Virus record (IMG/VR): IMGVR_UViG_3300045988_135167
Strand: one strand, 5' to 3'
DNA: 64,000 nt
From: a virus
Shown here: one piece after another, positions 5,481 through 36,109 of the stretch
Layout: each line of letters begins with the position of its first letter
Position numbering within the stretch: position 1 is the first letter of the stretch
The notes under the pieces: generated by a model
The model's input: the letters and a program-made list of their open reading frames with translations, nothing else
The model's database searches: none
What the model was told of the DNA's origin: nothing
Position numbers and translations under genes: made by a program

Positions 5481-5510
5481 GGGGAAATGTTCCACGTGGA
5501 ACATTTCCCC
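5481..5510. promoter_or_regulatory. 30-bp perfect palindrome GGGGAAATGTTCCACGTGGAACATTTCCCC, located 8 nt after the upstream stop codon and 15 nt before the tail-fibre ATG.
   Basis: Direct reading. The core TGTTCCACGTGGAACA is shared with three other sites. The minus-strand transcript then has a U-rich run (cuuuuucuu). Confidence 0.8.
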
Positions 5511-5518
5511 GGTTAAGG

Positions 5519-6484
5519 TTAAGCCAGCGGTCCCAGGTAGGAGAACACCAACGTTCCGCTGGGGTTGCTCCCGGTGGAAGCCTTGGCAATCGTCACCATG
5601 GTAGTGGCCGCGGCCGTCGGGGCACCGATGGAGAAGATCAGGCGGCCGACGAACTGGTTGCCCGTGAGAACCTTCCCGGCAAGAACCAGCGGAACCAGGC
5701 CGCTGGCGGCCGAGGTGGCACCCAGCACTTCGGAAGTGATCACCGTAGCGGTGGCTCCAACCGTCAGCTTGGCATCCCAGGTGGTGGCTCCAGTCGCAAC
5801 CGGAACGGACACGTCCACCGCATAGGCTCCGGCGGGCATTCCCGCGGGAAGCTGGAAGTCAGTGGAAGCTCCGGACACGGCACCCTGGACGATCCTGGTG
5901 GCACAGGGCAGAACCTGGGCCTGGACGACCGTAATGACCGCGGGAGACACGCCATCCAGGAGAACCTGTAGGTTGGCGTTCACCGCTGTCACGAAAACAG
6001 CGTCCCATCCGGGAAGAAGGGGCGTTGCTTCAGCAACCACGTTATTCAGGGAATCATCCATGAACCGGAGAAGCACGGTGGCCATCGGGTCGGAACAGGT
6101 GATCTTGTAAACGCTACCGGGAGTCAGAGCGTTGGGAACATTGTACCACAAGTCCGGCTGTGCAGGAGAAGGAGAAGGAAGGTTCCCAATAGCGGGAGCA
6201 TCCTTCTGAATCATGCTCAGCGTGACCTTGGCTTCAGACAAGCCAATCACGGTGAAGTATGCGGAAGTCTGGCCTGCATCCGTGGTGAAAGCCACTTCGC
6301 GGTTATAGAGCCTTCCGGATGCCTGGACCGTGGTCCCGGCTTCTTCCTTGGTGATCAGGACTTCAACAGGCCTGTCCGTATTGACTTTGAACACGTACCG
6401 CTTGGTGGCAACAAGCTCTGTAAGCTGGTACTGGGTGCCCGGTACGATGGCCACTTTGTCGGCGGGAATTGGAATAGTAGGCAT
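5519..6484 (-). CDS. Structural protein, 321 aa, Ala/Thr/Val-rich.
   Basis: ORF in the structural operon. Confidence 0.45.
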   Translation of the reverse strand: MPTIPIPADKVAIVPGTQYQLTELVATKRYVFKVNTDRPVEVLITKEEAGTTVQASGRLYNREVAFTTDAGQTSAYFTVIGLSEAKVTLSMIQKDAPAIGNLPSPSPAQPDLWYNVPNALTPGSVYKITCSDPMATVLLRFMDDSLNNVVAEATPLLPGWDAVFVTAVNANLQVLLDGVSPAVITVVQAQVLPCATRIVQGAVSGASTDFQLPAGMPAGAYAVDVSVPVATGATTWDAKLTVGATATVITSEVLGATSAASGLVPLVLAGKVLTGNQFVGRLIFSIGAPTAAATTMVTIAKASTGSNPSGTLVFSYLGPLA

Positions 6485-6495
6485 ATTCTTTTGAT

Positions 6496-7107
6496 TTAGG
6501 ATTTAACGGCGACGGAAGCAACCTCTACAATGGATACATTGGCACTCCTGTCACTGTCAAGATAGAAATGAAAATCAGTCCCCTGGCTCACGAAGATGTC
6601 CTGCGCGGCCTGGCCGATCAGCGGCTTGTACTCGCACATGACTTTATTGTCCTTGATGGACTGAATGAGCAGGGTGGCCGGAACATCGGACACCAGGGAA
6701 ATGGCATATCCCTTCCCTTCAGCAACTGCCAGGGCCGCGGGGGCCTTGTAGGTCGTATTGGGGAGAGCCGGAGTCGGAAGCTCGGCGATTGCCGGATCAT
6801 CCGGAATCTCCTTGCCCGTGAAGGTAATGGTTGCAGAACTCAGCGTATCAACCGTAAAGTTGTAGCTATTCTGGGGAATCAGAATCCAACGGTTCTTTAC
6901 CCGACCCTGAACGATAATAGTCAATGGATCAGTATTCTCTTGAATCGTGATGATTGCATCCTTGTCACAATCCACCTTGATCCAACAGCGATTACCCGGT
7001 GACAGGGTATAGGTGACATTCGGAAGAATAGGCTGGGGAGTACCATCAATGATGATACGTTCCTGTGCCGCTCTTGCAGATGCCGCTTTTACTTTTGCTT
7101 TAGCCAT
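6496..7107 (-). CDS. Structural protein, 203 aa.
   Basis: ORF in the structural operon. Confidence 0.45.
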   Translation of the reverse strand: MAKAKVKAASARAAQERIIIDGTPQPILPNVTYTLSPGNRCWIKVDCDKDAIITIQENTDPLTIIVQGRVKNRWILIPQNSYNFTVDTLSSATITFTGKEIPDDPAIAELPTPALPNTTYKAPAALAVAEGKGYAISLVSDVPATLLIQSIKDNKVMCEYKPLIGQAAQDIFVSQGTDFHFYLDSDRSANVSIVEVASVAVKS

Positions 7108-7108
7108 C

Positions 7109-7426
7109 TTATTTAAATGAGTTCATGGCTTCGGCGATATTCAAAGGACCGGAGCCGATGTCAGTTTCAGAAACGGTAGTGGAGTCGCCTTCTCCATCCG
7201 AGATTTCGGTTTCAGATTCTTCCTCGGTTTCTTCTTTCGGGGAATCGTCGTCATCGTCCGAAGGGATCGGGACACCCTCAATAGTTTTGAGAATGAACGT
7301 GTCTCCCGTATCAGAGACCACGGCTTCACCCAAAACCTCAATGGTGTCTCCGGGCTTCGCGTCCGGGAAGGCTTCCTTGTCGAGTGTAATTTCCATATAT
7401 GTTAAACAATAAAGGGGGAGCGGCAA
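7109..7426 (-). CDS. Acidic Asp/Glu-rich protein, 105 aa, possibly a head decoration or scaffold-related protein.
   Basis: SDDDDDSPKEETEEESETE tract. Sits directly downstream of the capsid gene. Confidence 0.4.
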   Translation of the reverse strand: MPLPLYCLTYMEITLDKEAFPDAKPGDTIEVLGEAVVSDTGDTFILKTIEGVPIPSDDDDDSPKEETEEESETEISDGEGDSTTVSETDIGSGPLNIAEAMNSFK

Positions 7427-7463
7427 TTCCGAGTGCCGCTCCCCCTGGGGTTATATGTTCAAA

Positions 7464-8732
7464 TTACAGGCCAGCCGAGACGAGAGCCTGGTTGGGCGTG
7501 GACAGGAGGGAACCCTTGACAGTACCGTCGGCACCCATCAGCTTGTTGTTCGGAGCAACACGCAGGTGACGAATCACGATACCATGGCGGGGATACACGG
7601 GCATGGCCGCGTTGGACAGCTCGGCCACGAACATACCCTGGGTGCCAAGGTAGTTGGTGTTCATGTCCGGGTTGTTGATCCAGCGGACTTCGCCGTTGAA
7701 CGTGCGCGGATTGAACTTCATCTTGTCCGCGGAGTTGAACGGAGGCACCACCATGGACTTGAACACGTCCCGCACGAAGATGATCGTGTCCTCGAAAGGA
7801 GCATTATCATACGCTTCGTTGGGGATGTAGATATTGCCCGTGGTGGACGGAACCGCCACATACGGATGGATACGAACCCACTTCTGGCCTACGGGCTTGG
7901 TATCATCGAAGTCATAGCGCGGAGCCATGGAATCCTGAAGATACACGAAGTTGCGGAAAGCCTTGGTGGCACCGAGCTGGTGCATCAGGTAGGAATTGTC
8001 GCCGAAGTTCGCTTCCATGAAGCGGATGTCCTGACGGATGTTCGGGTCTTCCTGAAGGATATAGTCCGTAGTGTCACGGGAAGCCATCACCGTAAAGACC
8101 GGGGCACCGTTGGCCATGCCAGCGGCGGCATCGAATGCACCTTCAAACTGGAGCTTGTTGTACATGCGGTCCATCACACCGGAGGTGAGGACGCAATCAG
8201 GTTCCTGTTCGGCGAAGGTCGTGATGTTTTCCGCGGAGTTCAGGCCGATAATGCCGTTCTTGGTGAGGATGCACTTGAACGTAGCAATAGTGGTGTACTG
8301 GGCACGGTAGGTTTCAGACCAAGCCAGACCGACGTTGGCAACCAGCTGGTCCAGGATGTTGGCGGCCTGTTGCTTGTTTTCCCAAGCCTGACGGATGCGG
8401 GTCACGTCGATCTTCTGGGAAGCAAGGCGGGCGGCAAAACGCTGGAAGCTGTACTCCGTGGCACCCGTTTCGTTGATGGTCAGCGGAACGTCAGTGGACA
8501 GGGAGTTCATCGTAACCGGAACCCACTCCGGAAGCGTGTAAGTCGCGCCGAACACGTTGACGCGGCCCGTATCACCAACACCGTCTTTCCACGCGATCTG
8601 GTCGATCATCATGGAGTTCCACGGGGAACGGCGAATGGTGGTCTTGTACATCTGCTCCTGGAGCAGATTTGACATGTAGGTAAGAAGCGTATCAGCCGCA
8701 TTTACCTGGGAAGGATTATAGACAGTAGCCAT
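7464..8732 (-). CDS. Putative major capsid protein, 422 aa.
   Basis: The call rests on synteny (portal, then scaffold, then this gene) and on size. No diagnostic motif was read. Confidence 0.5.
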   Translation of the reverse strand: MATVYNPSQVNAADTLLTYMSNLLQEQMYKTTIRRSPWNSMMIDQIAWKDGVGDTGRVNVFGATYTLPEWVPVTMNSLSTDVPLTINETGATEYSFQRFAARLASQKIDVTRIRQAWENKQQAANILDQLVANVGLAWSETYRAQYTTIATFKCILTKNGIIGLNSAENITTFAEQEPDCVLTSGVMDRMYNKLQFEGAFDAAAGMANGAPVFTVMASRDTTDYILQEDPNIRQDIRFMEANFGDNSYLMHQLGATKAFRNFVYLQDSMAPRYDFDDTKPVGQKWVRIHPYVAVPSTTGNIYIPNEAYDNAPFEDTIIFVRDVFKSMVVPPFNSADKMKFNPRTFNGEVRWINNPDMNTNYLGTQGMFVAELSNAAMPVYPRHGIVIRHLRVAPNNKLMGADGTVKGSLLSTPNQALVSAGL

Positions 8733-8906
8733 ATTCTTTTGTGTTTAAAATACGCCTTCAGTCAAAGACAATTATGATTGATTGTTTTGGCTGTGAGGAG
8801 GCCGATTTTCTCTCACAAAGAATATTTGCCAGCGGGAAAGCAAAAGGGGGACCACCGCTTGATGGTCCCCCTGTAACATACACACGCCGGAAAGTCAAGT
8901 TCTTTT

Positions 8907-10142
8907 TTAAAATCCTTTGAATCCTTCAATCGCGGACATCAGGTCCAGCGGCTTGCTCAGGTCCACTTCACCCTTCCCGGATTCGGGCTTCTCGGTAGAG
9001 TCAACGGGCTTGGCCACGCCCTTGTTCACGGAAGGAGCGGCTCCGCGCAACTTGCCAATCTTCTTCTTCAGGGCGGCGATTTCCTCCCTGGCCGCATTCA
9101 ATTCGGAAGTGGCTACATCCAGAAGAGCCGAACGCATGAACGCTTCATTGTCGATCTTGTGGCCGAGGTGCCGGGCACGCTTCAGCGTTTCCTCGGTGGG
9201 AACGGTTTCCAGCCCCAGGCTCTTGGCCATCTCGGCCAGGTTTTCCTGGGTGTACTTGGTCAAGTCCACTTCATACTTGCCCTCCGGCGTGAGGGAGGAC
9301 ATGAACTTGTCGGCGTACTCCTGGGCTTTGTCTTCAAAGGCCCAGTGCTTCTGGACAATTTCGTTGCGCCGAATAGCCATGCGGACGAACTTGGCCGTTT
9401 CGGCTGGCGTAATCCCCAGGGACTCGGCAATGTTCAAATAGGCTTCTTCCCGGTCAAAGCTGTCCATCGTGGTGTTTTCCACAATGGCATTGATCTTCTG
9501 GAAGGTTTCATCGGCATCCAGGGCATTGGTCCGGATGATGCTATTCAAGGACGCATTGGCCTTCTCGAAAGGAACGGTCACTTCGTTCTTGTATTCTTCC
9601 GACTCCCGGAACGCATAAGCGTTGAAAGCATTGCGGTACTTTTCAAGCTCGGCTTTTTCATCCTCGGAAACCGGAGCGGCTTTCAACTGCTCCTGAAGCT
9701 CCTTGATTTTCTTTTCCTGCTCCTTCAACTGAACGCGCATTTCCGCAAACTTCTGCGTAGCGCGGGGACTGGTCTTGGGCTGGGTCGGTTCCCCTCCTTC
9801 TTCGTTCTCCGGCTCGCTGGGTTCATCACCCTGGGGTTCGGAAGATTCGTTTTCAGGTTCACCGCCTTGTTCATTCTCCGGAGCCGGGGAAGGTTCGGCA
9901 GGGTTTCCCGGTTCAGGATTCTGCGTTGCATCGGGAGCCTGGTTGGGGTCGAACTCCCCGCGGTTCATCTGTTCATAGATTTCCGTGGGTTGCTGGGCCG
10001 CGGCATCCGCTTTTGCAATGGCTTCGTTCACCAAGTCCAGCAAGCCTCCGGCAGAGCTGGAAGGCATGGAAGACGGATTGATGTCACCGTTGACGGGGTT
10101 GACAGTAACATCCGGAGTAGGGGCAATAATAGGATCACTCAT
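8907..10142 (-). CDS. Putative scaffolding protein, 411 aa.
   Basis: Glu/Gln/Lys-rich coiled-coil-like sequence (QLKEQEKKIKELQEQLKA) and an acidic Pro/Glu-rich N-terminus. Lies between portal and capsid. Confidence 0.5.
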   Translation of the reverse strand: MSDPIIAPTPDVTVNPVNGDINPSSMPSSSAGGLLDLVNEAIAKADAAAQQPTEIYEQMNRGEFDPNQAPDATQNPEPGNPAEPSPAPENEQGGEPENESSEPQGDEPSEPENEEGGEPTQPKTSPRATQKFAEMRVQLKEQEKKIKELQEQLKAAPVSEDEKAELEKYRNAFNAYAFRESEEYKNEVTVPFEKANASLNSIIRTNALDADETFQKINAIVENTTMDSFDREEAYLNIAESLGITPAETAKFVRMAIRRNEIVQKHWAFEDKAQEYADKFMSSLTPEGKYEVDLTKYTQENLAEMAKSLGLETVPTEETLKRARHLGHKIDNEAFMRSALLDVATSELNAAREEIAALKKKIGKLRGAAPSVNKGVAKPVDSTEKPESGKGEVDLSKPLDLMSAIEGFKGF

Positions 10143-10522
10143 TGTTGTTGATTATTAAAAGATAGGGGTTTTGGACAAACGCTTTGACCAGGGATAACAG
10201 CACTGAATTTAGAAGCATATTCTTGCATGAATTTATCTGCTATCTGATGTGGAGTCAAGGGAGGAAGAGGTTGATCCTCGTCTTTTTTCAAGGCGGTTTC
10301 CAGATTCATTTCCGTCAACGCTTCCAGTCCATTGAAAGCGGCGTACACTCCGGAAATGAATGCGCCCTGAATGGCGGCCGCATCAATGGATTTTGGAAGA
10401 GAGGGGCCATACATTTCCAGCACGATGCGGATGGCTTCGTGCATCACCGGATGCCGGAGAAGTTCATGGAGCTTCTCTCTTTTGGTCTCGTCGGCCCGGA
10501 ACTCTTGAGGGGTAATCTTCAT
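10139..10522 (-). CDS. Hypothetical protein, 127 aa.
   Basis: ORF translationally coupled to the portal and scaffold genes. Confidence 0.4.
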   Translation of the reverse strand: MKITPQEFRADETKREKLHELLRHPVMHEAIRIVLEMYGPSLPKSIDAAAIQGAFISGVYAAFNGLEALTEMNLETALKKDEDQPLPPLTPHQIADKFMQEYASKFSAVIPGQSVCPKPLSFNNQQQ

Positions 10523-12840: not shown

Positions 12841-12842
12841 AT

Positions 12843-13793: not shown

Positions 13794-13803
13794 ATCTTTG
13801 ATT

Positions 13804-19099: not shown

Positions 19100-20452
19100 C
19101 GCAGAACCTCCCTGACGAGCAATACCCCTGTTATCCTATTAAGGATGGGTTAAGGCTATCACAGCGGGAAGCAAAGTCAATTAGGATTTCATTAAAAATT
19201 CATATCCTTAATTATCTAGAATAAATTTCTATGATTCTCGCTTCGACAACTCGCTAACCTTCCACTGGTTCTCCCAGTCTCTAGTGAACTCGAATCTCCA
19301 CGAGCGTAAGTTTCCGACTCCTCATCGGTACAATATTTTAAAATATTCAACGCCGCATTCAGGTCCCTATCTGCGGTATAGCCACAAAAAGGACATTTAA
19401 ATGTGCGCTTGGATAAATCCTTCATCGCACGATGACGTTCTCCGCAACAAGAACATAACTGCGATGAAGGGTACCATGGATCAACAAGCTCAAACGTACG
19501 TCCTGCACGAACGCATTTATATTCAAGCTGACGACGTATCTCATAAAATGATTGCTCTCCAATACTTCGGGCGAGATGATGGTTTTTCATCATGCCCTTG
19601 GTGTTGAGCGTCTCCATCCGAATCGCTTGGTTCTCGCGAACAAGGAATGAAGTCATTTTATGGATAAAGTCTGTATGTTGGCGCATTAAGCGTCTGTTGC
19701 GTTTTGCCAATGCGATTTTGGCTCTTGTGCGTCTCTTGCTACCTTTATGGCAACGAGAAAAATGTCTTTGAGAAAGCTTGATGCGACGCAATGAACGCTT
19801 CAAAGGGTTCCAACAAAAGACTTTTCCATCAGAGCAAGTCACAGTGGATTTGAGGCCAAGATCAATACCAACTTCTTTATTTACTAAAGGAAGAGACTCA
19901 ACAGGGTAATCGAAAAGAACTGAGCAATAGTAATCAATCCCATCCGTAGAAAGAGTGGCTCGTTTCAATTTCACATCTGGGATATAACCTTTGTTGTAAA
20001 ACTTGACCCGACCAAGTTTAGCAAGGCGAAGATGGTTACCATCCTCAAGACGTGGAACTGTGGGACTTACAGAAGAATAAGACTGTCTTAACTCTTTCTT
20101 ACTCTTGAACTTAGGGTAACTTGCCGAATGTGACCAAAAGCGCTGAAATGCTTTTGAGAGATTGTCGAAAACAAACTTCGGTATTTGAGAATCACACTCA
20201 TTAAGCCACATGAAATTAGAGTCCTCTTTCTTAAGCTTTCTTATTTCATTCCCAAGGTCAAAAGCGGATGGCCTTTTGGGCCGCTGATCCTTGGGGTATC
20301 TTTGTTCTCTTCCCACCATTTGTTGAGTCTTTCCAATCCCCAATTCCAAAGGAATCTTGAAGCACCAAAATTCCGATGAACCAATTCTTTTTGGAACTTG
20401 TTCAAATGAACTTTCACTTTACGACTCTGAAACATAGTTAAATTAAAGCAAC
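19100..20452 (-). mobile_element. IS200/IS605-family tnpB-only (IS1341-like) element. The boundaries are approximate.
   Basis: TnpB ORF plus a hairpin-rich 3' flank, inserted 17 nt after the upstream gene's stop. Sits at the junction between the structural and replication modules. Confidence 0.55.
19216..20435 (-). pseudogene. tnpB: tnpB (IS605 OrfB, RNA-guided nuclease family), interrupted by a +1/-1 frameshift near 20270-20300.
   Basis: N-terminal fragment 20241..20435 (KVHLNKFQKELVHRNFGASRFLWNWGLERLNKWWEE, the OrfB N-terminal HTH) and the body 19216..20349 overlap in different frames. The body carries the RuvC/zinc-finger C-terminus CSCCGERH...CPFCGYTADRDLNAALNI. Confidence 0.65.
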
Positions 20453-21661
20453 TTATTTTTCCCTCAAAAGACGAACCGAAGTTTTCCGGGCCGTCACGAT
20501 CCCGGAAGTCTCCAGGTCATTGATCAGGGCTTGCTTGATGGCATCCCTTTCCTTTTTGTTCGCTTCAGGAGCCATCTTGTCCAGCAGGACCACCAGGGCC
20601 TTTTTGAAAGAGACGCTGTTGGTGCATGCCATCAGCTCTTCCTGCGTCAGCTCTTCCCGCAGGTAAGCGGTCAGGGCTTCCTTGTTCACAGTCAGAAGCT
20701 CGCCGCCATTGTCGAACTTCCAGCCGGGAACCGGAATCCCCATGGCATTGAGGCTCTTGGCCGTTTCCTTCAACTGGTTTTGAGCCTCGGAAGCCACCTT
20801 GTAAAAGGATAACAACTTGCCTACCAGCACATTGTTCTGCACGGCATCCAAAATGTTGCTTATGTCGGTTCCCTTCAGGTCTTCTTCCTTCAGCACTTCC
20901 GCGGAGAAGGAAATGGCCAGCTCCGTCACCCGGCGGCAGGATGCACATTTGGCACAATACGGGCACACATCCGGGGAGGACTGGTAGGTAAACGGATTTT
21001 CCCGGTCGCGGTTCCTCCGGGAAATCACCGCCTTGTAGCCATCGCGGGCCTGGCGGTAATCCCTGGCCGCAAAATTGACATGATTTTCCCGGAGCTTCTT
21101 TTTAGACGAGCGGACCATCCGGGCCACCTTCAGGCTGTCGGAAAGTGTGGGCTGGATCACGGCCAGATAACACTCCTGGCACTGGCGGTTCTCAGCGAAC
21201 TCGAACACGCCGTAAATCATCAGCTGGGAATTGTCCTTGGGGTGGGTCACGGGGAGAAGACCCATCTTGTAGTCGGCAATACAGGACTTGTCGCCGCACC
21301 GGATCAGCACGTCGGCCGTCCCGCTTTGCTTTTCCTTCAGGCCCTTGAACGTCACCCCGCGGAACTTGTGCTCCCGGATGATGTTCAACTCCCCGCGCCC
21401 CACGCCCCAGAGGGAGCAGAGTTCATCCAGCAGGGATTCCAGGTCCGTATTGGCCCGGTTGTACAGGGAGGATTCATGAACGGACAGCAGGGGTTCGGGG
21501 TCCTGCTTCTCCAGGGCATAGTGGATTCGGGAACCGACGGCGGCCGGGGAGAACTCGTCCTCTTCTTCGTCTTCCCGCTCACGGTCTTCATAGCCGGGAC
21601 AGGTAGCGATCATCATCACCTTGGAAGGTGAATACTTGGTATGACTTACAGGGGTACTCAT
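20453..21661 (-). CDS. PD-(D/E)XK nuclease of the Cas4/RecB type with a C-terminal Cys cluster, 402 aa.
   Basis: IADYKMG (D-x-K motif), QLMIYGV (QxxxY), and a C-terminal CPYCAKCASC iron-sulfur-type cysteine cluster. Confidence 0.55.
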   Translation of the reverse strand: MSTPVSHTKYSPSKVMMIATCPGYEDREREDEEEDEFSPAAVGSRIHYALEKQDPEPLLSVHESSLYNRANTDLESLLDELCSLWGVGRGELNIIREHKFRGVTFKGLKEKQSGTADVLIRCGDKSCIADYKMGLLPVTHPKDNSQLMIYGVFEFAENRQCQECYLAVIQPTLSDSLKVARMVRSSKKKLRENHVNFAARDYRQARDGYKAVISRRNRDRENPFTYQSSPDVCPYCAKCASCRRVTELAISFSAEVLKEEDLKGTDISNILDAVQNNVLVGKLLSFYKVASEAQNQLKETAKSLNAMGIPVPGWKFDNGGELLTVNKEALTAYLREELTQEELMACTNSVSFKKALVVLLDKMAPEANKKERDAIKQALINDLETSGIVTARKTSVRLLREK

Positions 21662-24168
21662 TTTTCTATCAGTGTTTCCAGGTTTTCTTTTTTCTCTTCA
21701 ATGACTGCGGCGATCTTTTCCTCAATGGTGTTGGCCGCAACCAAAATGAACTGCCGCGTGTCGCTCTTGGCTCCGGCGCGGTCAATGCGTCCCAATGCCT
21801 GGACATTATCAATCAGGCTGTAGGAGAGGCTTAAAAGGGAGGCACGGGGACGTTGCCCATTGATGTCATGCAGGGAGAGTCCGGCTCCCCCGGCCTGAAT
21901 CTGAATGAAAGCAATATGGGCTTCGTCCCGCTGGAACTTGTCAATGGCCGCCTGGCGGCTCTTTTTGGACTGCCTTCCATCAATCCGGACGGAGGGAACC
22001 TTCGGGAACATTTCTTCCAGCGCATTGATGCTGTCCAGGAAAGTGAGGAACACGACCACGGAACAACCTTCATCCAGAAGGTTTTGCAGGAACTCGGCAA
22101 TCGTCGGGATTTTGTGAAGCTCCACTTCCTGCCGGGCGCGGAGCAATTCCACCACAGCCGGAGGCCCGGCATAGTCCCGGCCTTCCTCAATGGCTTTCAT
22201 CATGGCTTCCTCGCTCTTGATCAGGTCGGCATCCAATGTATTCTCCATCTTCTCCAGCCACTTCTGCATGCTGTTGATCCGGGAGACGGTCTCCTTGTCG
22301 TAGTCCACCAGCACGGTCTGGATGAAGGAGGTGGTGAAGTAGGGAGCCATTTCCGAGCGGTCCACCTTGGTCAGAATCCCGGCTTCCTTGAGACGGGAGT
22401 TGATGCGCTCCATGTGGGAGATGGTGACTGGAGTGCGGACAAACTCCAGGCCGCCCCAGAAAGCGTGGGTGCATCCATGCTGAAGCATCCAGGCCGTCTG
22501 GGAGATGTAGTTGGTGAACATGCCGAAGGCATAGGCGAAGTAGCCCATGTCCAGCGGATTGATGAAGGGTGTAGCCGAGAGAAGGATCGTTGGTATCTTC
22601 ATGCGGGCGGCCGAAACAAAGGCCAGCCCTTGCAAAGAGAACCGCCCCGCCCGGAGGGCCTGGGCCTCGTCTGAGATAAGCACGGCATCATCCGGGAGGT
22701 TCCAGCGGCCGAGGTTGACGCACCGCTTGTCCCGGCGAACCGGAGGCTTGTACCACCGGGTGTTTCCACGGACCAGCTTGGCATAAGTAAGCACATCATA
22801 ATACTCCACCTTCTGCTGGTCCAGGGCGCGCTCCCAGGAAGAGACCACAGCCTTGGGACAGACCACCACCGGGCGTTTTCCCATGCGCTTCACCGTCTCT
22901 ACAGCCATCAAGGTATTATGGACAATGGTAAAATCACCAAGGAGAAAACGATGGTCCACGTCGTTTACAAACCCGTAATAATCTCCGACCCCTATTGCCT
23001 CTACTTTAAACCCGGTTCTTAAAACATTCTTCTTTTGTTTTCTAATTGAACATTTTCTTCTCGGTACTCGAACAGGTATGCAACTTATATTTCCAGATAT
23101 AACAATTATATAATATAAATCTTCCTTATTAGTATTGGTACAAACCTTTTTTCTAAGCTTGGAATAAGAAGCAAAACCTAATGATCTGGCTACAAATAAT
23201 ATGTCTTCACAAAATCCTTTATATTTTGTGGAAATCTCATAACATCCATTTGTTAAATACCCATCAGTATCAATGATACCTGCAAGAACATTTAATCGGG
23301 TTTCATGACTTCCACATTTATATGGGTGCTTTATCCGTCGTTCCTTCCCATTAAAAATATTTCTATAAATAATCTGTCGTGGAAGTTCTTGGTTCTTGCT
23401 TATACTGGTAAAACTTAAAGGGGTAACACGGTTTACCGCTTTTATTTCTTTTGCCCTCCATCCGATACTTTCAGCGTACCCTTTACAATATTCCAATACC
23501 TCATTATCAACATTGGTTATTTGAGAACACGGGTAGAGCTTTCCATTTACTGTTACAGGTGAAGAGCCATCACCCAAATAAACTCCTACAAAATAAGGGT
23601 CAAGCTCCGGTTTCTCTATCTCCGGGAAATCTACTCCGGTCCTTACCAGCTTGAATCGGTGTTTAAAAGTTTTGGATGATGAAAGATATTCTTTAAGAGA
23701 TATATCAATCAATTCCCCTGCCCAATATTTTCTACCTCCCAATGAAATTTTTACAGGTGTTGTTCCGGAAATTATACCTGTTATAATATGTTCATCGTTA
23801 ACAATATGGGGATCACCTTTAAAGGGAACGATACGATACATCGGGGCTTGGCCACGGGCAAGACTCAAAACTTGACGAGGACAAGAGTCCGGACCCATTA
23901 TTTTATCTCCGACACTTACTTGTTCAATAGGTTTAATTGTACCGTTGAACATCAGAACAGGAGTTCCTTTTCCGAAGCACTTGCCGACCCCGGTGTTGCT
24001 GGAGTTCAGCACAATCCCGTTGCGGCGCATGGACTCCAGCATTTCACCGATGCACCGCTCCTGCGGAGGGAACGGGTTCAGGGGTTCCGGAACATACGCC
24101 TTCTGCGTCTCCAGGGTTTTCCGGGAGGCATTGCCCGTATTGGTCAGTCGGATTCGTCGGGTCGGCAT
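21658..24168 (-). CDS. SNF2/DEAD-like helicase, 836 aa, interrupted by a 355-aa LAGLIDADG intein. The extein is about 481 aa.
   Basis: Walker A GVGK|T is split by the intein. DEAQALR motif II and C-terminal helicase motifs are present. Intein features: Cys1 (CFGKG), two LAGLIDADG blocks (VGVYLGDGSS and LAGIIDTDGYL), and a terminal HN followed by Thr. Confidence 0.7.
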   Translation of the reverse strand: MPTRRIRLTNTGNASRKTLETQKAYVPEPLNPFPPQERCIGEMLESMRRNGIVLNSSNTGVGKCFGKGTPVLMFNGTIKPIEQVSVGDKIMGPDSCPRQVLSLARGQAPMYRIVPFKGDPHIVNDEHIITGIISGTTPVKISLGGRKYWAGELIDISLKEYLSSSKTFKHRFKLVRTGVDFPEIEKPELDPYFVGVYLGDGSSPVTVNGKLYPCSQITNVDNEVLEYCKGYAESIGWRAKEIKAVNRVTPLSFTSISKNQELPRQIIYRNIFNGKERRIKHPYKCGSHETRLNVLAGIIDTDGYLTNGCYEISTKYKGFCEDILFVARSLGFASYSKLRKKVCTNTNKEDLYYIIVISGNISCIPVRVPRRKCSIRKQKKNVLRTGFKVEAIGVGDYYGFVNDVDHRFLLGDFTIVHNTLMAVETVKRMGKRPVVVCPKAVVSSWERALDQQKVEYYDVLTYAKLVRGNTRWYKPPVRRDKRCVNLGRWNLPDDAVLISDEAQALRAGRFSLQGLAFVSAARMKIPTILLSATPFINPLDMGYFAYAFGMFTNYISQTAWMLQHGCTHAFWGGLEFVRTPVTISHMERINSRLKEAGILTKVDRSEMAPYFTTSFIQTVLVDYDKETVSRINSMQKWLEKMENTLDADLIKSEEAMMKAIEEGRDYAGPPAVVELLRARQEVELHKIPTIAEFLQNLLDEGCSVVVFLTFLDSINALEEMFPKVPSVRIDGRQSKKSRQAAIDKFQRDEAHIAFIQIQAGGAGLSLHDINGQRPRASLLSLSYSLIDNVQALGRIDRAGAKSDTRQFILVAANTIEEKIAAVIEEKKENLETLIEK
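22915..23979 (-). other. Intein (Hint plus LAGLIDADG homing endonuclease) inserted in the helicase P-loop.
   Basis: Begins at Cys (TGC at 23977-23979) and ends at His-Asn (22915-22920) followed by Thr. Splicing restores NTGVGKTLMAVE. The central part (about 22980-23800) is markedly AT-rich relative to the flanks. Confidence 0.65.
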
Positions 24169-24171: not shown

Positions 24172-25989
24172 TTAATCCTTCGTGTACTTGTCCATGATAG
24201 ACGGTTCGGCGACCAGCGGAAGGCCCTTGGCCCAGGCAGGGGCATCGGTCATGCACATGGACAGGTAGCGGGCCTTGTCCTGCAAATTGTCTTCGGAGGC
24301 CAGCGTCACCATTTCGTCATGTACAATGGTCACAGGTTCAATGACATCTTCCGCGGAAACATGATTAAAAGCATTCATCATCAAGTCGCGGGCCGTTCCC
24401 TGGACGAAGTTGTTGGAAAGCAGGTTGGCATTGATGATGGCCGTGCGGTTCCCCTGGTCCACTACCCAGACCATGGCCTTCTGGCCGTTCTTCTTTTCAA
24501 TGAGCTTGCGGTAGCAGTTGCGGTAAATAATCTTGCGCCCGGAAGGGAGCGTCAGATAGAACGAGCGGGAAGGAGAAGCAAACCCGGCCCTGGCAATTTC
24601 CATCAACGTATTCCACCACTGGACCACGCGGTTGAAGTTGGTGCGGTAAAGTCGGATCATCTGCTCGCACTGTTCTTCCGTCAGCCAGGGGTTGCTCCGG
24701 TGAAGGCCCGCGGCCCCCTGTGCAAACCCGGCTCCAAGTACCGCGGCTTTCAAGGGATTGCGGATGTGGGTTCCATGGCTCGCGTCCCATTTCTTCAGGT
24801 CCTCCCCTTCCGGAATGATCTTCCAAATCCAGGCGACGGCCGAGTACAAGTCAACTCCCTGGCGGCATAGTTCCAATACATCATCATAGCCGTTGAGCCA
24901 CAGGATAATGCGGCCTTCAATCTGCCCGAAGTCACTGACAATCAGCTTGTAACCTTCGGGAGCCTGGATGATGTTGCGGATGTCGATGCCTTCCTTGGGT
25001 TCGCGAGGAAGCCCCTGGATGTTGAACTTGGAACCCCCGGCCCAGCGTCCGGTGGTGGCTCCAAAATATTTCAGGTCATAACTGCACCGCTCCATCCCCT
25101 TGTCATCCACAAAGCACCGGGGGACCAGCACTTCCATGTTTCGGCGGTTCTTGTTGGCCGAGCGAAGAGCCGGGAGGTTGCCCAGCCACGGAACGAACTT
25201 CCCGTACTGCTCCAGCCATTCATCAAAGATGGGGGAATCCTTGCGGGTGGTTTCGGGAACCGGGAGTCCCAGCTTCACAATCTCGGCCAGCAACTGGGGC
25301 CGAGAAAGCTTCTTATCCATCGGGAGCGCGTCGGCATACTTTTCAGCGGCCTTGGCAAAATGGTCAACGGCATTGGTGATGAACTCCCTGGAAGTCGGGA
25401 ACCCGCGAAGCCCCATGTCCACGGTATTGGACCAGCAGATGCGTTCTTCACTGGGCCAGAATCGGCCGAACTTCTCCCACAGCTTCCAGCACCAGATCGC
25501 GTCGAAAGCCACATATTCCTTCATGTCTTCGGGGATCACCTCCAGCTTGGAGAAGTCCACCCCCTTGGCTTTGTCGCGGACCTCCTTGCTCATGGTGACT
25601 CCGAACACCTGGGCCACGATCTTGGAGAGGGAACCGGGGATGCCGATGTACTGGCACGCGGCCATGGCGCAGACGAACTCCTTCATCGGCCAGTCGCACG
25701 GGGCACCCAGGCCCAGCTCGTACACCGTCCGGTCGAAGGCGGCGTTGAAGGCCACCACGGTCTTGTCCTTGGTGACGCTCCAGTCGAACTTGGAAGGATG
25801 GCACACCACCCGGTTCTGGCCGTCATAGGCGGCCATGATATAGGAATCAAAGCGCGGGTCCTTGCAATAGGTCCGGTAGTCCAGTTCCTTCAGGGAATAT
25901 TCGGACGTGTAAAAGGTTTCAAAGTCCACGGCGATCACGTCGCCGGAGAGCTTGTAGCAATCTGGGTCAAAGTCTTTTTTAGCAGTCAT
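24172..25989 (-). CDS. polA: Family A DNA polymerase with a 3'-5' exonuclease motif, 605 aa.
   Basis: Exo I VIAVDFETF; motif A SDFGQIEGRIILWL; motif C TIVHDEMV. Confidence 0.75.
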   Translation of the reverse strand: MTAKKDFDPDCYKLSGDVIAVDFETFYTSEYSLKELDYRTYCKDPRFDSYIMAAYDGQNRVVCHPSKFDWSVTKDKTVVAFNAAFDRTVYELGLGAPCDWPMKEFVCAMAACQYIGIPGSLSKIVAQVFGVTMSKEVRDKAKGVDFSKLEVIPEDMKEYVAFDAIWCWKLWEKFGRFWPSEERICWSNTVDMGLRGFPTSREFITNAVDHFAKAAEKYADALPMDKKLSRPQLLAEIVKLGLPVPETTRKDSPIFDEWLEQYGKFVPWLGNLPALRSANKNRRNMEVLVPRCFVDDKGMERCSYDLKYFGATTGRWAGGSKFNIQGLPREPKEGIDIRNIIQAPEGYKLIVSDFGQIEGRIILWLNGYDDVLELCRQGVDLYSAVAWIWKIIPEGEDLKKWDASHGTHIRNPLKAAVLGAGFAQGAAGLHRSNPWLTEEQCEQMIRLYRTNFNRVVQWWNTLMEIARAGFASPSRSFYLTLPSGRKIIYRNCYRKLIEKKNGQKAMVWVVDQGNRTAIINANLLSNNFVQGTARDLMMNAFNHVSAEDVIEPVTIVHDEMVTLASEDNLQDKARYLSMCMTDAPAWAKGLPLVAEPSIMDKYTKD

Positions 25990-26007: not shown

Positions 26008-26035
26008 CCGGAATGTTCCACGTGGAACATTCCGG
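26008..26035. promoter_or_regulatory. 28-bp perfect palindrome CCGGAATGTTCCACGTGGAACATTCCGG, located 8 nt after the upstream stop codon and 18 nt before the DNA polymerase ATG.
   Basis: Direct reading. Same core and same 8-nt spacing (GGTTnnnn) as the site at 5481-5510. Confidence 0.8.
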
Positions 26036-26043
26036 GGTTGGAA

Positions 26044-26313
26044 TTATGCCTGTGCGGAGTTGAAGTTCTTTAAATGGCAGAGGAACTGGCCGGTATCCGA
26101 AACAGCGGTTTCATACTGAATCACGCTGTACCGCTTGGCAAAAGTCTTGGACTTCTTCCCGGCGGGGATGGTGTACACCACTTCCAGGTCCCCCTTTTCG
26201 GAGACGACGAAGCTGGCGGCTACATTCAATTCACTGATTACCTTCAGGTTCTTTTCAATCTCCGTCAACTGGAGCTGGCGAATGGTGGTCTTAGGTATTC
26301 TGGGATTCCACAT
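26044..26313 (-). CDS. Hypothetical protein, 89 aa.
   Basis: ORF. Confidence 0.35.
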   Translation of the reverse strand: MWNPRIPKTTIRQLQLTEIEKNLKVISELNVAASFVVSEKGDLEVVYTIPAGKKSKTFAKRYSVIQYETAVSDTGQFLCHLKNFNSAQA

Positions 26314-26662: not shown

Positions 26663-26706
26663 TGTTTAAAATCATCTTATCGGGTGCGATTGGATTGTAA
26701 AGCCTA

Positions 26707-28873: not shown

Positions 28874-29115
28874 ACAAAATAATCGTATTGTTGTTTCTTC
28901 CTTCCGGGAACGAACACCAGCAAGCTGACCACCGTGCCGCTCCCGAACGGAGTTTCCCTCAGGTCAAACACGACCCCGCCTTCACTCCAGCTTCGCTCAT
29001 TGTTTCTGAGCGCGTGCTTGGTGTAACTGCGGACCACGTAGTCCGGAGGGTTGGTTTTGTTGAGCGGGACAAACTTTTCAGTGGCCCGCGGCTTTCTCCG
29101 TGTCAGCATATCCAT
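28864..29115 (-). CDS. Hypothetical protein, 83 aa.
   Basis: ORF. Confidence 0.3.
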   Translation of the reverse strand: MDMLTRRKPRATEKFVPLNKTNPPDYVVRSYTKHALRNNERSWSEGGVVFDLRETPFGSGTVVSLLVFVPGRKKQQYDYFVWK

Positions 29116-29390
29116 TCTCCTACCTCCCTGGATTCAGGTGTCAACAACTTTTTAAGAGGGCCTCCCGGATGAAGGCGGCCACGCCTCCACCACCCCGCCC
29201 TACATCCATATATTCCAAGTGTTTTTATTAGGGGTTGGGGTCCGAATCAACGGCCGGGAGATTTGAAAAACTTCTGGTTGACTTTCCTCCTGTTTTGCTT
29301 ATGATTGCTTCAGACCATTTGATTAGCGGTCTTCATAAATTAGTTGGATTCCTGAGACAGGAGGCGTTGTGAAACGTCTCCTGTTTCTGC

Positions 29391-32318: not shown

Positions 32319-34080
32319 GATTTTTTAATAGGTGAAAAGTCAGAACAGAAAATCCCAAATAATCTAGTAAGACCCCCATCGTATATAGGGTAAGCGAGAG
32401 GTTAAGATTTTTTGGCTTTCCCAGGATATGACTAAGCGTCAGCGACTTATCGGTTTCCGTTAGTCCGTTAGCTATAAACTCCAATATATACATACGTGAG
32501 AAATGTAGTTATAAAAAAACACATATAGGAATGTCCGCGCGTTAAATGTGTGCGCGGGAGAAAGCCAACCGGAAGCTGAGGGCAAGCCCAAACCCATCTG
32601 TTTTATCCCGCCCTCGCAAAATTGCCCATTCCCGCCATTCTTTCATGTAGGGTGTACACCTAACAGGGCCTTCAGGTATAACTTTAAGCCTCGACCACTA
32701 TCACCATTCACCCTCTCGCATATTTTCAATTTTGGTTCCATCACCCTCCCTGGAACGCCCCTCCGGTGCTTTTCTCCGTGCCAGGGTGGATTCCCGGTTC
32801 GACGGACCCATGTTCCGTTGGCCCGCTCACGTGTACGCGCGACCCTGGCGCAAATCCCGGTTTGTCGTCCTGGCGAATCGTGAACCCGGCTTCAACGATC
32901 CTTCGCTTCAACGCTTCCCCGGTTCAAAACTTCGGCGACCCCATTTCCGGAAAAATGCGAGTTGAGGATTTGGATATGCGCGGCGGGCGGCTGAAGGGGG
33001 AGTGACCGTGGTGGTGTCAAAAAAGTTAGGTGCGACTTTTTTAGAATCATTCCAACATTGAAGCGGTGAATCGGAGCCGCGCCGGGAAAACCAAACGCCC
33101 TACCGTATAGCATAACTCGCTTATACTTAACAGTCTCTTAATCCATACTTCGCATAATATACGTAATGCCAAATCGGTTGCGTGTCCAGTGCATAACGCG
33201 TTGAAGCTTAGAACCTTGAACCCTTTTCCGTTGGCTTTTCGCTTGGGAGAATCTGCGATTCATTGGTTCAACGGTTCGGCGTAGCAAAAGAATCCATTCT
33301 GGAGCTTTACAAAATTGTAAAAAAGAGACTTTTCTTTTGCGCCAAATTGTAAATCCCTACCATTCCGATAGGGATAAACGCTGAAGCGTTGTAACGTAGT
33401 TGCGTTGAATCATTTAGCCACATACCAGAACCGACATATCAATGAATCACGATACGTTGATGCGTTGAATCGTTGAACTGTGGAAGGTCTGCAAGGAATA
33501 AAATTTTATGCTTGAATGTAAAACTTTTCTAAATCCCTATAAACCAATGACTTATAAGGATTTAGAATCACTGAATCAACAATCGGAGCATCGAAAAGGC
33601 ATAAAATTTTATACAATTCGGCTAAAATCATATAAAATTTTATCCAACTGATATTCAATCACTTGGGATAGAATCATGAAAAAACCCATAACGAAGCGTT
33701 GAATCATTGAAGCGTTGAATCGTAGAATCTTGTTCACTTTTTATACGCTTGTATAAAAAGTGACGGGGAAACCGGGAATCATGGAGCCGTGAAACTGGAA
33801 AAAAGTCCAAAATGGAGCCGTGAAACTGAAAAAGAGTCCAGAATGGAGCCGGAATGAGTCAAAACTTTTTATACAAGCGTATAAAAAGTGAACAAGGCTC
33901 ACATGCGAGGGTTGTATGACACAATCATAACCTATTGATACTGAACAGATAATAAAATTTTTGAAGAAAAGGATTGACGTAATAAAAAAAATAATGATAA
34001 AAGATAGTCATCAGCCGAACGAACTACAAACCGACTGAATCCAACAATCAAATACTAAACAATAGAAAGAACCAGCCAAC
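32319..34080. other. Non-coding divergent control region, a candidate replication origin. It contains iterons, palindromes and inverted repeats around a GC-rich structured island.
   Basis: No credible ORF. GCGTTGAATC occurs 4 times (33402, 33462, 33697, 33712) plus degenerate and inverted copies. ATAAAATTTTAT occurs 3 times. An inverted-repeat pair (CACTTTTTATA-n6-TATAAAAAGTG, 33735-33762 and 33866-33890) flanks three 31-bp direct repeats (33781-33865). Confidence 0.6.
32530..33035 (+). ncRNA. Candidate structured non-coding RNA. This is a GC-rich island with many hairpins, and the strand is uncertain.
   Basis: Hairpins at 32534-32558, 32578-32616, 32744-32767 and 32882-32928 (enclosing two CTTCAACG motifs), then an AU-rich stem plus T-run at 33017-33043. 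The translations look non-protein (Pro/Cys-rich, overlapping frames). Confidence 0.3.
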
Positions 34081-34344
34081 ATGAAGAGATACCGATTTGT
34101 GATTTACGCCTTGAAAGGCATTGCAGGCCTGAAAGCGGTTGACTCCCTGGAATGCTCTACGCTTTTGGAAACTATCCGGAAAGGCAAGCATGCCGTTGAA
34201 ACTAAAGGTGAAAGCCTTGTCATGTGGGTCCAAAAATACGAACCGGGTACTGAGCCGTCCGGCTGGCTGACAGTCACTGTGTTCACCCGCAAGGGCGGCC
34301 CGCGCTCCCATTGGATGGAAAAGCCGGACTACTCCCCCTATTAA
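34081..34344 (+). CDS. Early hypothetical protein, 87 aa.
   Basis: ATG 10 nt after AATAGAAAGAACCA. First gene of the rightward block. Confidence 0.45.
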   Translation: MKRYRFVIYALKGIAGLKAVDSLECSTLLETIRKGKHAVETKGESLVMWVQKYEPGTEPSGWLTVTVFTRKGGPRSHWMEKPDYSPY

Positions 34345-34371
34345 CCCTAAACCATAGAAAGACAATAGATT

Positions 34372-34467
34372 ATGACAGAAGAAAATAAAGAAATGGAATG
34401 GGAGACACACGCCCTTGCGAGTCAGGCGGCGGCCCGTGCTAATGCAACCCTTATATGGTGCGTGTGA
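34372..34467 (+). CDS. Small early ORF, 31 aa.
   Basis: ATG 9 nt after CATAGAAAGA. Not in the ORF track because it is under 60 aa. Confidence 0.3.
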   Translation: MTEENKEMEWETHALASQAAARANATLIWCV

Positions 34468-34480
34468 TTTTACCGTTCGC

Positions 34481-34506
34481 CGAATTGTTCCACGTGGAAC
34501 AATTCG
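34481..34506. promoter_or_regulatory. 26-bp perfect palindrome CGAATTGTTCCACGTGGAACAATTCG, followed by the hairpin GGCGAGGTTTTAATCTCGCC (34519-34538).
   Basis: Direct reading. Confidence 0.8.
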
Positions 34507-34572
34507 AGAATCACAAAAGGCGAGGTTTTAATCTCGCCGCATAAATAAGCCAATAGACAGGAAAATCAAATC

Positions 34573-34818
34573 ATGAAGCCTATCATTACATTCTGCAAGC
34601 CGGACCTTTCCGGAAAAATCGCGCCCCTTTGTGGCACGATGGATTCCTATTTGGACGACGGCCGCCGCTCCCTGGAGTCCATTAAACAATCTGCATGGGA
34701 AGAATTGAAGCGACGGAACGCCCATTCAAAAACCAATTATGCCGGGTTTGTCATTTATAATGCCATTTCCTTCCCATGGCGCACCGTGTACAAAACCCAT
34801 GAAGAAATTGAGGATTGA
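34573..34818 (+). CDS. Early hypothetical protein, 81 aa.
   Basis: ATG follows CCAATAGACAGG, a variant of the upstream motif. Confidence 0.4.
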   Translation: MKPIITFCKPDLSGKIAPLCGTMDSYLDDGRRSLESIKQSAWEELKRRNAHSKTNYAGFVIYNAISFPWRTVYKTHEEIED

Positions 34819-34856
34819 ACCTTTAATTTGAAGGAAAAAGCATATATCTTTGAATC

Positions 34857-35054
34857 ATGATAACTTCATATATTCCCCCTTGCCTTCAGCGGTCCGCGCG
34901 TGAATTGGAGCTTGAACTGGCAAAGACCCGGTGGATTCAAGCCGTTGAATACCTGAAAGAAGAAATTGAAAATAACAAGCACGACAAGCGGAAAGTCCGC
35001 GCCTTGCTTCAACGGCTCCGGGATCAATATTCATGGAGGCCTGCTATTTATTAA
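34857..35054 (+). CDS. Early hypothetical protein, 65 aa.
   Basis: ORF. Confidence 0.3.
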   Translation: MITSYIPPCLQRSARELELELAKTRWIQAVEYLKEEIENNKHDKRKVRALLQRLRDQYSWRPAIY

Positions 35055-35194
35055 ATAAAAAATAATGAACAAAAAGCTTGCAATCCGGTTCAAGCAAGCA
35101 TAGATTGAAAGCATCAACTGAGGCGGCCCGCCGCACAGGGCAATCCAAATCCGGTTATCACCGGAAAACTAAAATCCAAACCAAAAACTAATTT

Positions 35195-35608
35195 ATGAAT
35201 ACTAAAGAAAGACGCACAGAAGACCTTCTAAGGGCATTTGGAATTCGATTTTCTAAATTTAAATTAGGTCTTAGAATCCCGCCGCACTGGGGCGACTGTC
35301 AAGATCGTCACATGGAATATTTGGTACGGTTTGAACGATTGAAGCCGCGGAGGGGCGAAAAAGATGTGTTAAACGTTTTATGGTACGCTTCTTTACTGAG
35401 ACCAAATGAATGCACAGCGTTTGACGTTCTGACTACCTTGACTAAAGAAAAGTTCGCCGATTTTGAAGATTTCGCGGATCAACTTGGTATGGATTATTCC
35501 AAAAAAAGTTACAAGCTTTACAACGCCATCCAACAGGAAGCGGAAGACGTGATAGCTTTCTTTTCCCGTGAAAATGAATTGAACTTAATTTCTACCCTCG
35601 AAGACTAA
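35195..35608 (+). CDS. Early hypothetical protein, 137 aa.
   Basis: ORF. Confidence 0.4.
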   Translation: MNTKERRTEDLLRAFGIRFSKFKLGLRIPPHWGDCQDRHMEYLVRFERLKPRRGEKDVLNVLWYASLLRPNECTAFDVLTTLTKEKFADFEDFADQLGMDYSKKSYKLYNAIQQEAEDVIAFFSRENELNLISTLED

Positions 35609-35610
35609 AC

Positions 35611-36066
35611 ATGAATCCATTAGTACAAAGAGAATTAGGCTTGCTGATAGTATCCGTGTCCATGAACCTTGATGGAACGGGAACACTGACTTTTGATCAC
35701 AAGCATCGCGGCATGCTCAAAACCATGTCATTTCCGAAACTGCCGGACGCGCTCAATATGCAGGAACGCATTATTCGTTATACCTGTGAAAAATTGAATA
35801 GGGTCAAGTCTTCAAAAGGGCATGTAGTCAACTTTTTTAGGCTATCTCCTTCTCTTGTCATGGTGAAGGCTCCCATGAACTATTTGACAATGATACAGGG
35901 AGATGGACAAAAGCTTAACGTTGATTATGCGACCGCCTTGTTTGCCGAACTGAAAGAAGGTAGGTTGGTTTCCGATTTTTTCCCGATTCCGGAAGAATTG
36001 GAAGTTGTTTATTACAAGGTGGAAGATGATCATCTTGTCATGGTGATTGAAGATAAGTCACGCTGA
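35611..36066 (+). CDS. Early hypothetical protein, 151 aa.
   Basis: ORF, start overlapping the previous stop. Confidence 0.4.
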   Translation: MNPLVQRELGLLIVSVSMNLDGTGTLTFDHKHRGMLKTMSFPKLPDALNMQERIIRYTCEKLNRVKSSKGHVVNFFRLSPSLVMVKAPMNYLTMIQGDGQKLNVDYATALFAELKEGRLVSDFFPIPEELEVVYYKVEDDHLVMVIEDKSR

Positions 36067-36079
36067 ACCCTTAATCCCT

Positions 36080-36109
36080 CCGGAAAATGTTCCACGTGGA
36101 ACAATCCGG
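36080..36109. promoter_or_regulatory. Palindrome with the perfect core TGTTCCACGTGGAACA (36088-36103) and imperfect outer arms, followed by the hairpin GGCAGGATTAAAATCCTGCC (36131-36150).
   Basis: Direct reading. Confidence 0.75.

Follow-up and report, generated by a model that had tools for sequence, protein, structure and literature searches.

ParB loads at its centromere site, parS, as a CTP-gated clamp and then spreads. A single parS together with chromosomal Par proteins stabilizes unstable plasmids, and in Pseudomonas aeruginosa ParB bound at the intergenic sites parS3 and parS4 represses the downstream genes. Among phages, the closest biological case is Bacillus phage phi29, whose parS sites serve spore entrapment dependent on the host protein Spo0J; palindromic centromere sites also lie on the genomes of phage-plasmids such as P1 (ParAB-parS) and N15 (SopAB). 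The hijacking of host centromere function by phages has hitherto rested mainly on phi29 and sporulating Bacillus. Gut phages that look virulent can persist for years alongside their hosts without integrating, and host centromere sites on a phage that has no partition genes would offer a concrete mechanism. We analyzed a 64,000-nt stretch of the IMG/VR virus record IMGVR_UViG_3300045988_135167 (hereafter the window), which represents most of a ~68–70-kb phage genome repeatedly assembled from human-gut metagenomes and contains four exact copies of the palindromic 16-mer TGTTCCACGTGGAACA, each embedded in longer palindromic arms. These repeats are probably orphan chromosomal-type parS sites that load host ParB, on a phage without detectable ParB or ParA.

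Judged by its sequence, the core is the canonical perfect-palindrome chromosomal parS, the predicted loading site of ParB. A review of ParB proteins assigns TGTTCCACGTGGAACA to Pseudomonas putida and P. aeruginosa as their parS, alongside the general consensus TGTTNCACGTGAAACA and the Myxococcus variant TGTTCCACGTGGAACG, and all papers in the searched library that contain TGTTCCACGTGGAACA (9/9) concern parS and ParB. The phage thus carries four exact copies of a documented functional variant. A palindromic 16-mer has eight free positions, and the probability that an arbitrary phage repeat equals a canonical parS variant by chance is ~1e-4 or less. The agreement extends beyond the core. In chromosomal and viral parS sets alike, the flanking position −1 is A at a frequency of 0.50–0.51 and C at only 0.04–0.11, and position −2 is A at 0.42–0.47; all eight phage half-flanks fit this chromosomal preference (A/T at −1, A at −2). 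An earlier, sequence-only reading of this DNA had proposed a core read sequence-specifically within a hairpin. The element is indeed real, non-random and equipped with pairing arms, but that reading did not recognize the core as chromosomal parS. Because it is, host ParB, and not the small winged-helix proteins of the phage that had been suggested, is the natural binder.

The repeat stands out clearly from its background. At up to three mismatches, TGTTCCACGTGGAACA has six matches in the window against 0.32 expected by chance, and none of 100 shuffled windows reached six. The two matches other than the exact copies (8615–8630 and 61827–61842) each carry three mismatches and lie within coding sequence; the second is kept in strains L127–L130, and both are probably due to chance. 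All four exact copies occupy short intergenic gaps, which make up 3.7% of the window (P ~2e-6 for 4/4) in a genome that is 93.5% coding. Arms, stop-codon distances and flanking genes (Table 1) agree with the earlier description: three perfect palindromes and one imperfect one, minus-strand copies set exactly 8 nt past the upstream stop (GGTTAAGG and GGTTGGAA), and, 3′ of the copies, genes for a tail protein (Phage_tail_C) and a family-A DNA polymerase as well as two small early genes. Open reading frames (ORFs) starting MFHVEH or MFHVEQ do derive from the ATG within the motif, as had been noted. No further parS was found in the ~5 kb of genome beyond the window, giving a genome total of four sites dispersed over 31 kb of ~69 kb. 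Neither ParB nor ParA was detected among ~64 proteins searched with Pfam, 30 searched with PHROGs or the precomputed Pfam matches of the ~5 kb beyond the window, and the GERRxRA motif was not found in the phage. Like phi29, the phage therefore bears several host-type parS sites without a detected ParB of its own.

The 16-mer is widespread in both bacteria and viruses. It occurs exactly in at least 120 bacterial species genomes, often at 2–5 copies per 8 kb, and in at least 120 IMG/VR viral contigs (L001–L120); the bacterial scan used one genome per species, the viral scan used IMG/VR, and the parS counts in both are lower bounds. Among the bacterial loci listed, 25 of 120 include a GERRxRA ParB gene within the fetched 8 kb, in line with use of the sequence as a centromere in real chromosomes. 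The matches listed include four Akkermansia genomes, one of them an A. muciniphila metagenome-assembled genome (MAG), as well as Victivallales, Opitutia, Chthoniobacterales, Limisphaerales, Planctomycetota, many gut Bacteroidales, Ruminococcus, Pseudomonas and Myxococcus. One Akkermansia MAG has two parS sites at mnmG(gidA)-mnmE, a classic origin-proximal neighborhood. Scrambled palindromes of identical composition, with the central CACGTG kept, gave 1 and 3 matches in IMG/VR (L261–L264), which puts the enrichment of the parS 16-mer in viral contigs at no less than 40-fold over these controls; its abundance is thus not compositional. The canonical GERRxRA ParB motif was absent from all 120 viral loci listed (1.0 Mb in total). 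In both the viral and the genome set, parS is 2–4-fold over-represented outside long open frames, although the majority of copies fall within such frames. Orphan host-type parS sites may accordingly be searched for as a class, and on these sequence comparisons they may be common in phages, bearing in mind that IMG/VR includes some misclassified host or plasmid DNA. In one family of 54–106-kb contigs (L013, L030, L068, L072–74, L080, L086 and L108), parS lies at a conserved position.

Embedding of parS in longer palindromes also occurs in chromosomes. Among the loci listed, 17 of 164 chromosomal copies (~10%) are extended by at least 4 bp, against 0.6 expected. Several of these are flanked by A- and T-tracts and have the form of bidirectional intrinsic terminators (Chitinophaga, Shewanella, Ruminococcus and a Bacilli MAG), and one Akkermansia parS site is a 34-bp perfect palindrome. 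No description of parS embedded in long terminator-like palindromes was found in the literature searched.

Table 1. Coordinates of the parS copies and associated features. Positions refer to the window, except in the last row, where they refer to the named loci.
Feature	Position	Core	Strand	Structure or location	Gene ending before the copy	Gene starting after the copy
parS copy 1	5481..5510	5488–5503		30-bp perfect palindrome (15+15), GGGGAAA-core-TTTCCCC	321-aa gene (5519..6484, minus); stop 8 nt away	tail protein; ATG at 5465, 15 nt away
parS copy 2	26008..26035	26014–26029		28-bp perfect palindrome (14+14), CCGGAA-core-TTCCGG	89-aa gene (26044..26313, minus); stop 8 nt away	DNA polymerase; ATG at 25989, 18 nt away
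parS copy 3	34481..34506	34486–34501		26-bp perfect palindrome (13+13), CGAAT-core-ATTCG	31-codon ORF (34373..34468, plus); stop 12 nt away	ATG at 34573, 66 nt away
parS copy 4	36080..36109	36088–36103		imperfect arms CCGGAAAA / ATCCGG	151-aa gene (35611..36066, plus); stop 13 nt away	ATG at 36183, 73 nt away
Second hairpin GGCGAGGTTTTAATCTCGCC	34519..34538		minus	12 nt 3′ of copy 3		
Second hairpin GGCAGGATTAAAATCCTGCC	36131..36150		minus	21 nt 3′ of copy 4; followed by leader CCAATAGAAAGAAC		
Non-coding region	32319..34080			1.8 kb, between the divergent replication-and-structural (minus) and early (plus) blocks		
Extended chromosomal parS (examples)	L209 6119; L176 7947; L217 7194; L180 2786; L198 2034; L253 4166; L213 606					

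The arms are the least conventional part of the element. Folding of the flanks, as had been recommended, yields stable RNA hairpins (z −4.4 to −5.7), with a predicted free energy of −23.8 kcal/mol for copy 1 (z −4.8) and −23.5 kcal/mol for copy 2 (z −4.4). Copies 1–3 form 11–13 predicted pairs closed by a 4-nt loop, and copy 4 forms a shorter two-part stem, in which a 5-bp outer CCGGA/TCCGG stem is separated from the core by a 3x1 internal loop (an AAA-versus-A asymmetry). The chance of 7+6+5 additional pairs in the three perfect copies is ~1e-11, which upholds the claim that pairing has been kept. The arms are, however, less independent of one another than that claim implied: their sequences differ, yet they follow a common plan of a G/C-rich clamp, then 2–4 A/T bases, then the core. 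A far more remote relative from IMG/VR (L049), which has the ligase, ThyX, DUF6926 and other genes in common with this phage, carries one exact parS past its DUF6926 gene; there too the site forms a hairpin tip, closed by a 9-bp GUUCCGGGG/CCCCGGAAC stem with 6 and 9 unpaired bases ahead of the clamp. Because the spacing varies while the pairing stays, an intramolecular hairpin, in RNA or extruded DNA, is favored over a second duplex-binding protein. Compensatory arm changes among strains of this phage could hardly be seen, as there is almost no variation to show any, and the evidence for covariation therefore consists of the four paralogous copies plus L049. Readings of the arms as a Noc-binding site, or as counterparts of the CCCCGGAAC repeats of L049, were dropped as over-reading.

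These hairpins raise the alternative that the element works in RNA only, as a terminator, RNase-processing or 3′-stabilizer hairpin common to early and late transcripts, whose apex is read by an RNA-binding factor of phage or host, the parS match being coincidental. Its best support is positional, since in the direction of transcription a stable stem-loop follows a stop codon by 8–13 nt at all four copies, and pairing is kept while arm sequence and spacer length (2–4 nt) vary, with the distant relative retaining an outer stem round the same apex. The terminator or processing function proposed earlier therefore has the right location, but its other hallmark is largely missing. Directly after the stem, a U-tract is missing from copies 2–4, and copy 1 has just a T-rich stretch that begins 4 nt beyond it; a terminator scan called none of the four hairpins, although true terminators of this phage, at 1161–1186 and 62811–62844, combine a hairpin with a T-run. 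Scans against Rfam and for tRNAs likewise returned no match. The start codons of the polymerase and tail genes follow their palindromes too closely to leave room for a promoter (18 and 15 nt), and these two hairpins must therefore be transcribed through. An RNA-only element would moreover have to match parS by a coincidence of ~1e-4 or less and to share the flank preferences of chromosomal parS by accident, and we consider it improbable. Under the orphan parS reading, the arms may form an attenuator, insulator or stabilizer around the ParB site, a role that we regard as plausible but somewhat short of probable.

Two further features were noted in the early region. Past copies 3 and 4 lies a second conserved module (34513–34555 and 36125–36170) that reads CAAAAGGC(G/A)GG-loop-CC(T/C)GCC, then TAAA.AA.CCAATAGA, and contains the second hairpins of Table 1. 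Both hairpins have the same architecture, an A-run ahead of the stem on the plus strand that becomes a hairpin plus TTTTG terminator on the minus strand; the genes at these modules are on the plus strand, whereas the terminator reading concerns the minus strand. The module may be an antisense terminator or a promoter element, and its link to parS is uncertain. Strain L135 has an extra partial copy. The leader motif CCAATAGAAAGAAC occurs at 34059, 36162 and 38255, and more weakly at 34550 and 36855, 8–10 nt ahead of early-gene starts at which no Shine-Dalgarno sequence is evident; at up to three mismatches it has 13 matches against 5.7 expected.

A second alternative holds that the palindrome is an operator for a phage-encoded binder, either winged-helix/MarR-like or a divergent ParB-like protein, with a regulon or partition system of its own. 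Palindromes of 16 bp are typical operators for dimers, and most proteins of this phage lack detectable homology, which leaves room for a hidden binder. The sequence-only reading had nominated two small winged-helix proteins. This assignment was not supported: their genes lie 3–20 kb or more from every copy, and no link to the sites was found. The 92-aa protein described as MarR-like (56023..56301) has only sub-threshold MarR/HxlR/winged-helix matches, and the product of 39524..39814 has no family match; neither gene adjoins a parS copy. A 65-aa early protein (34857..35054) weakly matches the DpnI_C helix-turn-helix, and its gene also does not adjoin a site. Searches of the phage gave no ParB-fold or partition-ATPase signal, the variable arm spacing speaks against an extended duplex operator, and a private regulator would leave unexplained both the identity to a host-type centromere and the presence of the 16-mer in hundreds of unrelated bacterial genomes and viral contigs. 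We judge this alternative unlikely, slightly more so than an RNA-only element.

Conservation among strains bears on whether the sites have any role at all. In intact assemblies from many samples, strains do not differ at any of the four copies, either in the core or in the arms. Copy 1 is identical in 9 other assemblies of this phage. Copy 2 is conserved in strains, its apparent losses being indels of 1–2 nt within the palindrome in Logan assemblies. Copy 3 is present in 8 of 10 strain loci; L133 and L137 lack it, with differing gene calls just upstream, and a 1-nt bulge in its left arm in L138 is the sole arm variation among strains. Copy 4 is exact in 9 of 10 strain loci, the tenth (L133) having an N-gap that begins within the palindrome. 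We therefore set aside most strain losses as technical rather than biological (indels of 1–2 nt, an N-gap, and contigs ending exactly at a palindrome). Assembly breaks or miscalls within palindromes were seen at L131 ~385, L134 ~390 and L133 10487 onward, and at the ends of L270, L271 and L273. Short-read assemblies break at palindromes, so presence/absence calls are unreliable, and perfect-palindrome parS sites are probably under-counted in such assemblies.

A largely neutral palindrome, spread by recombination and kept symmetric by template-switch correction without any role for the phage, would be a third explanation. Perfect symmetry could indeed be aided by template-switch correction of quasi-palindromes. 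The related arms (a C/G clamp plus an A-run) would fit descent from a single ancestral palindrome of ~28 bp, in L140 different sequence borders the arm of copy 3 directly on its upstream side, forming a mosaic junction, and close relatives exist without the sites. Against neutrality stand the placement of every copy between genes in so densely coding a genome, their invariance across many strains, the enrichment in viral contigs over scrambled controls and the independent hairpin occurrence in the distant relative, and we find this explanation less likely still. The weakest alternative, hairpin promoters in DNA for an injected virion RNA polymerase as in phage N4, could point to a giant 3323-aa ORF (44529..54500) and to hairpin-forming palindromes ahead of early genes, but is very improbable and was rejected, because N4 promoters, which cluster at the early end, have 5–7-bp stems and 3-nt loops whereas the stems here span 13–15 bp and two copies directly precede start codons within the replication and structural operon, Pfam and PHROGs gave no match for the giant ORF, and the genome is not N4-like (polymerase <27% identical to those of cultured phages).

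Several observations weigh against orphan parS sites as the explanation, or limit its reach. ParB requires the duplex 16-mer alone, which leaves the arms unexplained by ParB, and extrusion of a hairpin or cruciform would destroy the duplex site. Terminator activity, as one role for the arms, can only be partial, given the missing U-tracts and the two hairpins that are read through. Most parS 16-mers in other viral contigs lie within ORFs, and some copies may therefore have no function. In six to seven related lineages (41–47% polymerase identity), no parS-like site at up to three mismatches occurs within 10 kb of the polymerase, and the sites are therefore accessory, not essential to the phage family. 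A structurally divergent phage ParB-like protein could escape searches with hidden Markov models. Host assignment gives little help: Akkermansia did not rank high in tetranucleotide correlation with 8-kb genome loci, TnpB homologues lie nearly all on related ~70-kb phage contigs, and lysin homologues belong only to the same phage. Taken with the conservation described above, the sites are accessory and patchily distributed, but not accidental. Near their polymerase genes the related lineages have unrelated long hairpins, and other intergenic palindromes were noted in phages at 41% polymerase identity (L125/L126 2434–2467, a 34-bp AATTCCCTGCCTATTTGCAAATAGGCAGGGAATT, and L124 13535–13566 and 14496–14525).

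The host whose ParB would be recruited is only weakly suggested by distant relatives. The polymerase is <27% identical to that of any cultured phage, the early region has no megablast match to cultured phages, and a polymerase-based scan of IMG/VR returned no close relative. Remote homologues of the polymerase fall in bins of Verrucomicrobiota, Kiritimatiellia and Lentisphaerota (PVC bacteria), which hints weakly at Akkermansia or another PVC bacterium as host; cluster names added merely more PVC labels on such homologues. Akkermansia and Bacteroidales, as candidate gut hosts, both carry the same 16-mer among the matches listed, and a published survey records ParABS in A. muciniphila YL44.

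The remaining gene content gives the context of the sites. The phage encodes a VapE-type primase-helicase, PolA, an intein-containing helicase, a PD-(D/E)XK nuclease, ThyX, an NAD-ligase, TnpB and a terminase. Between the divergent gene blocks lies the 1.8-kb non-coding region of Table 1, with at least seven GCGTTGAA-type iterons, some of them phased at 8 bp, together with four ATAAAATTTTAT palindromes and a 2 x 31-nt tandem repeat enclosed by a perfect 33-nt inverted-repeat pair (33729–33761 / 33864–33896). These repeats make the region a candidate origin or control element; to its right are copies 3 and 4, at 0.4–2 kb, and to its left, at 6.3 kb, is copy 2. The helicase (21658–24168, minus) contains an intein (Hint plus a LAGLIDADG homing endonuclease) and is 836 aa long, compared with 448–454 aa in the related L121 and L275. 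TnpB (19216–20349, minus; OrfB_IS605 / Cas12f-like TNB) has its closest homologues at 50–63% identity almost exclusively on ~65–72-kb phage-like contigs and, by that distribution, seems resident in this phage family. The giant ORF (44529–54500, plus), without significant Pfam or PHROG match, is kept at 3311 aa in strains and may be a virion or injected protein. In the part of the genome just beyond the window, strain contig L127 encodes an Acb2/Tad1-hairpin-like protein (4074–4262; weak precomputed Pfam match) and a Tad2-like protein (9512–9997; precomputed Pfam), both possible anti-CBASS/Thoeris sponges.

We propose that, after injection, host ParB dimers would recognize the duplex 16-mer at the four intergenic sites, close round the DNA and spread, producing partition complexes on the phage genome. 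Host ParA and ParB could handle phage genomes as they would a low-copy plasmid, positioning and segregating them, which would allow persistence in dividing cells without integration (a carrier state). As a secondary effect, ParB could damp the genes directly 3′ of the sites (DNA polymerase, tail fiber and early genes). Selection on the arms would act on their intramolecular pairing and not on the binding of a second protein to the duplex, with each site at the tip of a 13–15-bp hairpin that could act as a weak terminator, attenuator or 3′-end stabilizer grown round the pre-existing palindrome. In this way a single short gap would serve two functions, and the arms may keep transcription from disturbing the site at which ParB loads. 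By analogy with phi29 and with the known behavior of ParB, host ParB should load on the four sites, and we are rather confident that it binds them in vivo. We assign inheritance or positioning of the phage genome as the main role only tentatively; ParB titration and recruitment of SMC are alternative roles, inseparable from positioning here. The fullest version, in which a prevalent, integrase-less human-gut phage outsources its inheritance, host ParABS partitioning the genome while ParB throttles the polymerase, tail and early genes to give a carrier state without lysogeny, is more speculative again and, as a whole, doubtful. What appears to be new in these sequences, and for which we found no description, is that every copy is hairpin-embedded and that the carrier belongs to a non-sporulating gut system. 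The parS enrichment in viral contigs, together with the terminator-like embedding of ~10% of chromosomal copies, suggests that the phenomenon may extend well beyond the one textbook case and that further examples would be easy to look for.

Compared with known systems, the sites resemble Rho-independent terminators and stabilizer hairpins in having a G/C-clamped perfect stem-loop directly past stop codons. Unlike terminators, copies 2–4 have no U-tract, and copies 1 and 2 have the start codon of an essential gene 15–18 nt beyond them, so termination cannot be efficient; nor do ordinary terminators have an identical 16-nt apex common to four hairpins of one phage. With the phage-plasmids P1 and N15, the phage has palindromic centromere sites on its genome in common. 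In N15, four inverted-repeat centromere copies are dispersed among phage genes and are able to affect expression. P1 and N15 encode their own ParA/ParB (SopA/SopB) and use private centromeres, whereas here the sites follow the host chromosomal consensus and no partition proteins were detected. Phage phi29 differs as a small protein-primed podovirus of a sporulating Firmicute, in which the role of parS is tied to sporulation; the likely host here is a non-sporulating gut bacterium, and the phi29 account consulted does not describe hairpin embedding of its sites. The nearest match in sequence is chromosomal ParABS parS (the TGTTNCACGTGAAACA family, with TGTTCCACGTGGAACA itself in Pseudomonas, Myxococcus-like, Akkermansia and other PVC genomes), from which the phage sites differ in lacking parA/parB, in being dispersed rather than clustered near oriC, in being all intergenic and in being extended, at every copy, to 26–30 bp. 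They agree with it in the identical 16 bp, the flank preference and the presence of multiple copies per replicon, and also in that two copies adjoin the probable origin or control region and that some chromosomal copies, too, sit within longer terminator-like palindromes.

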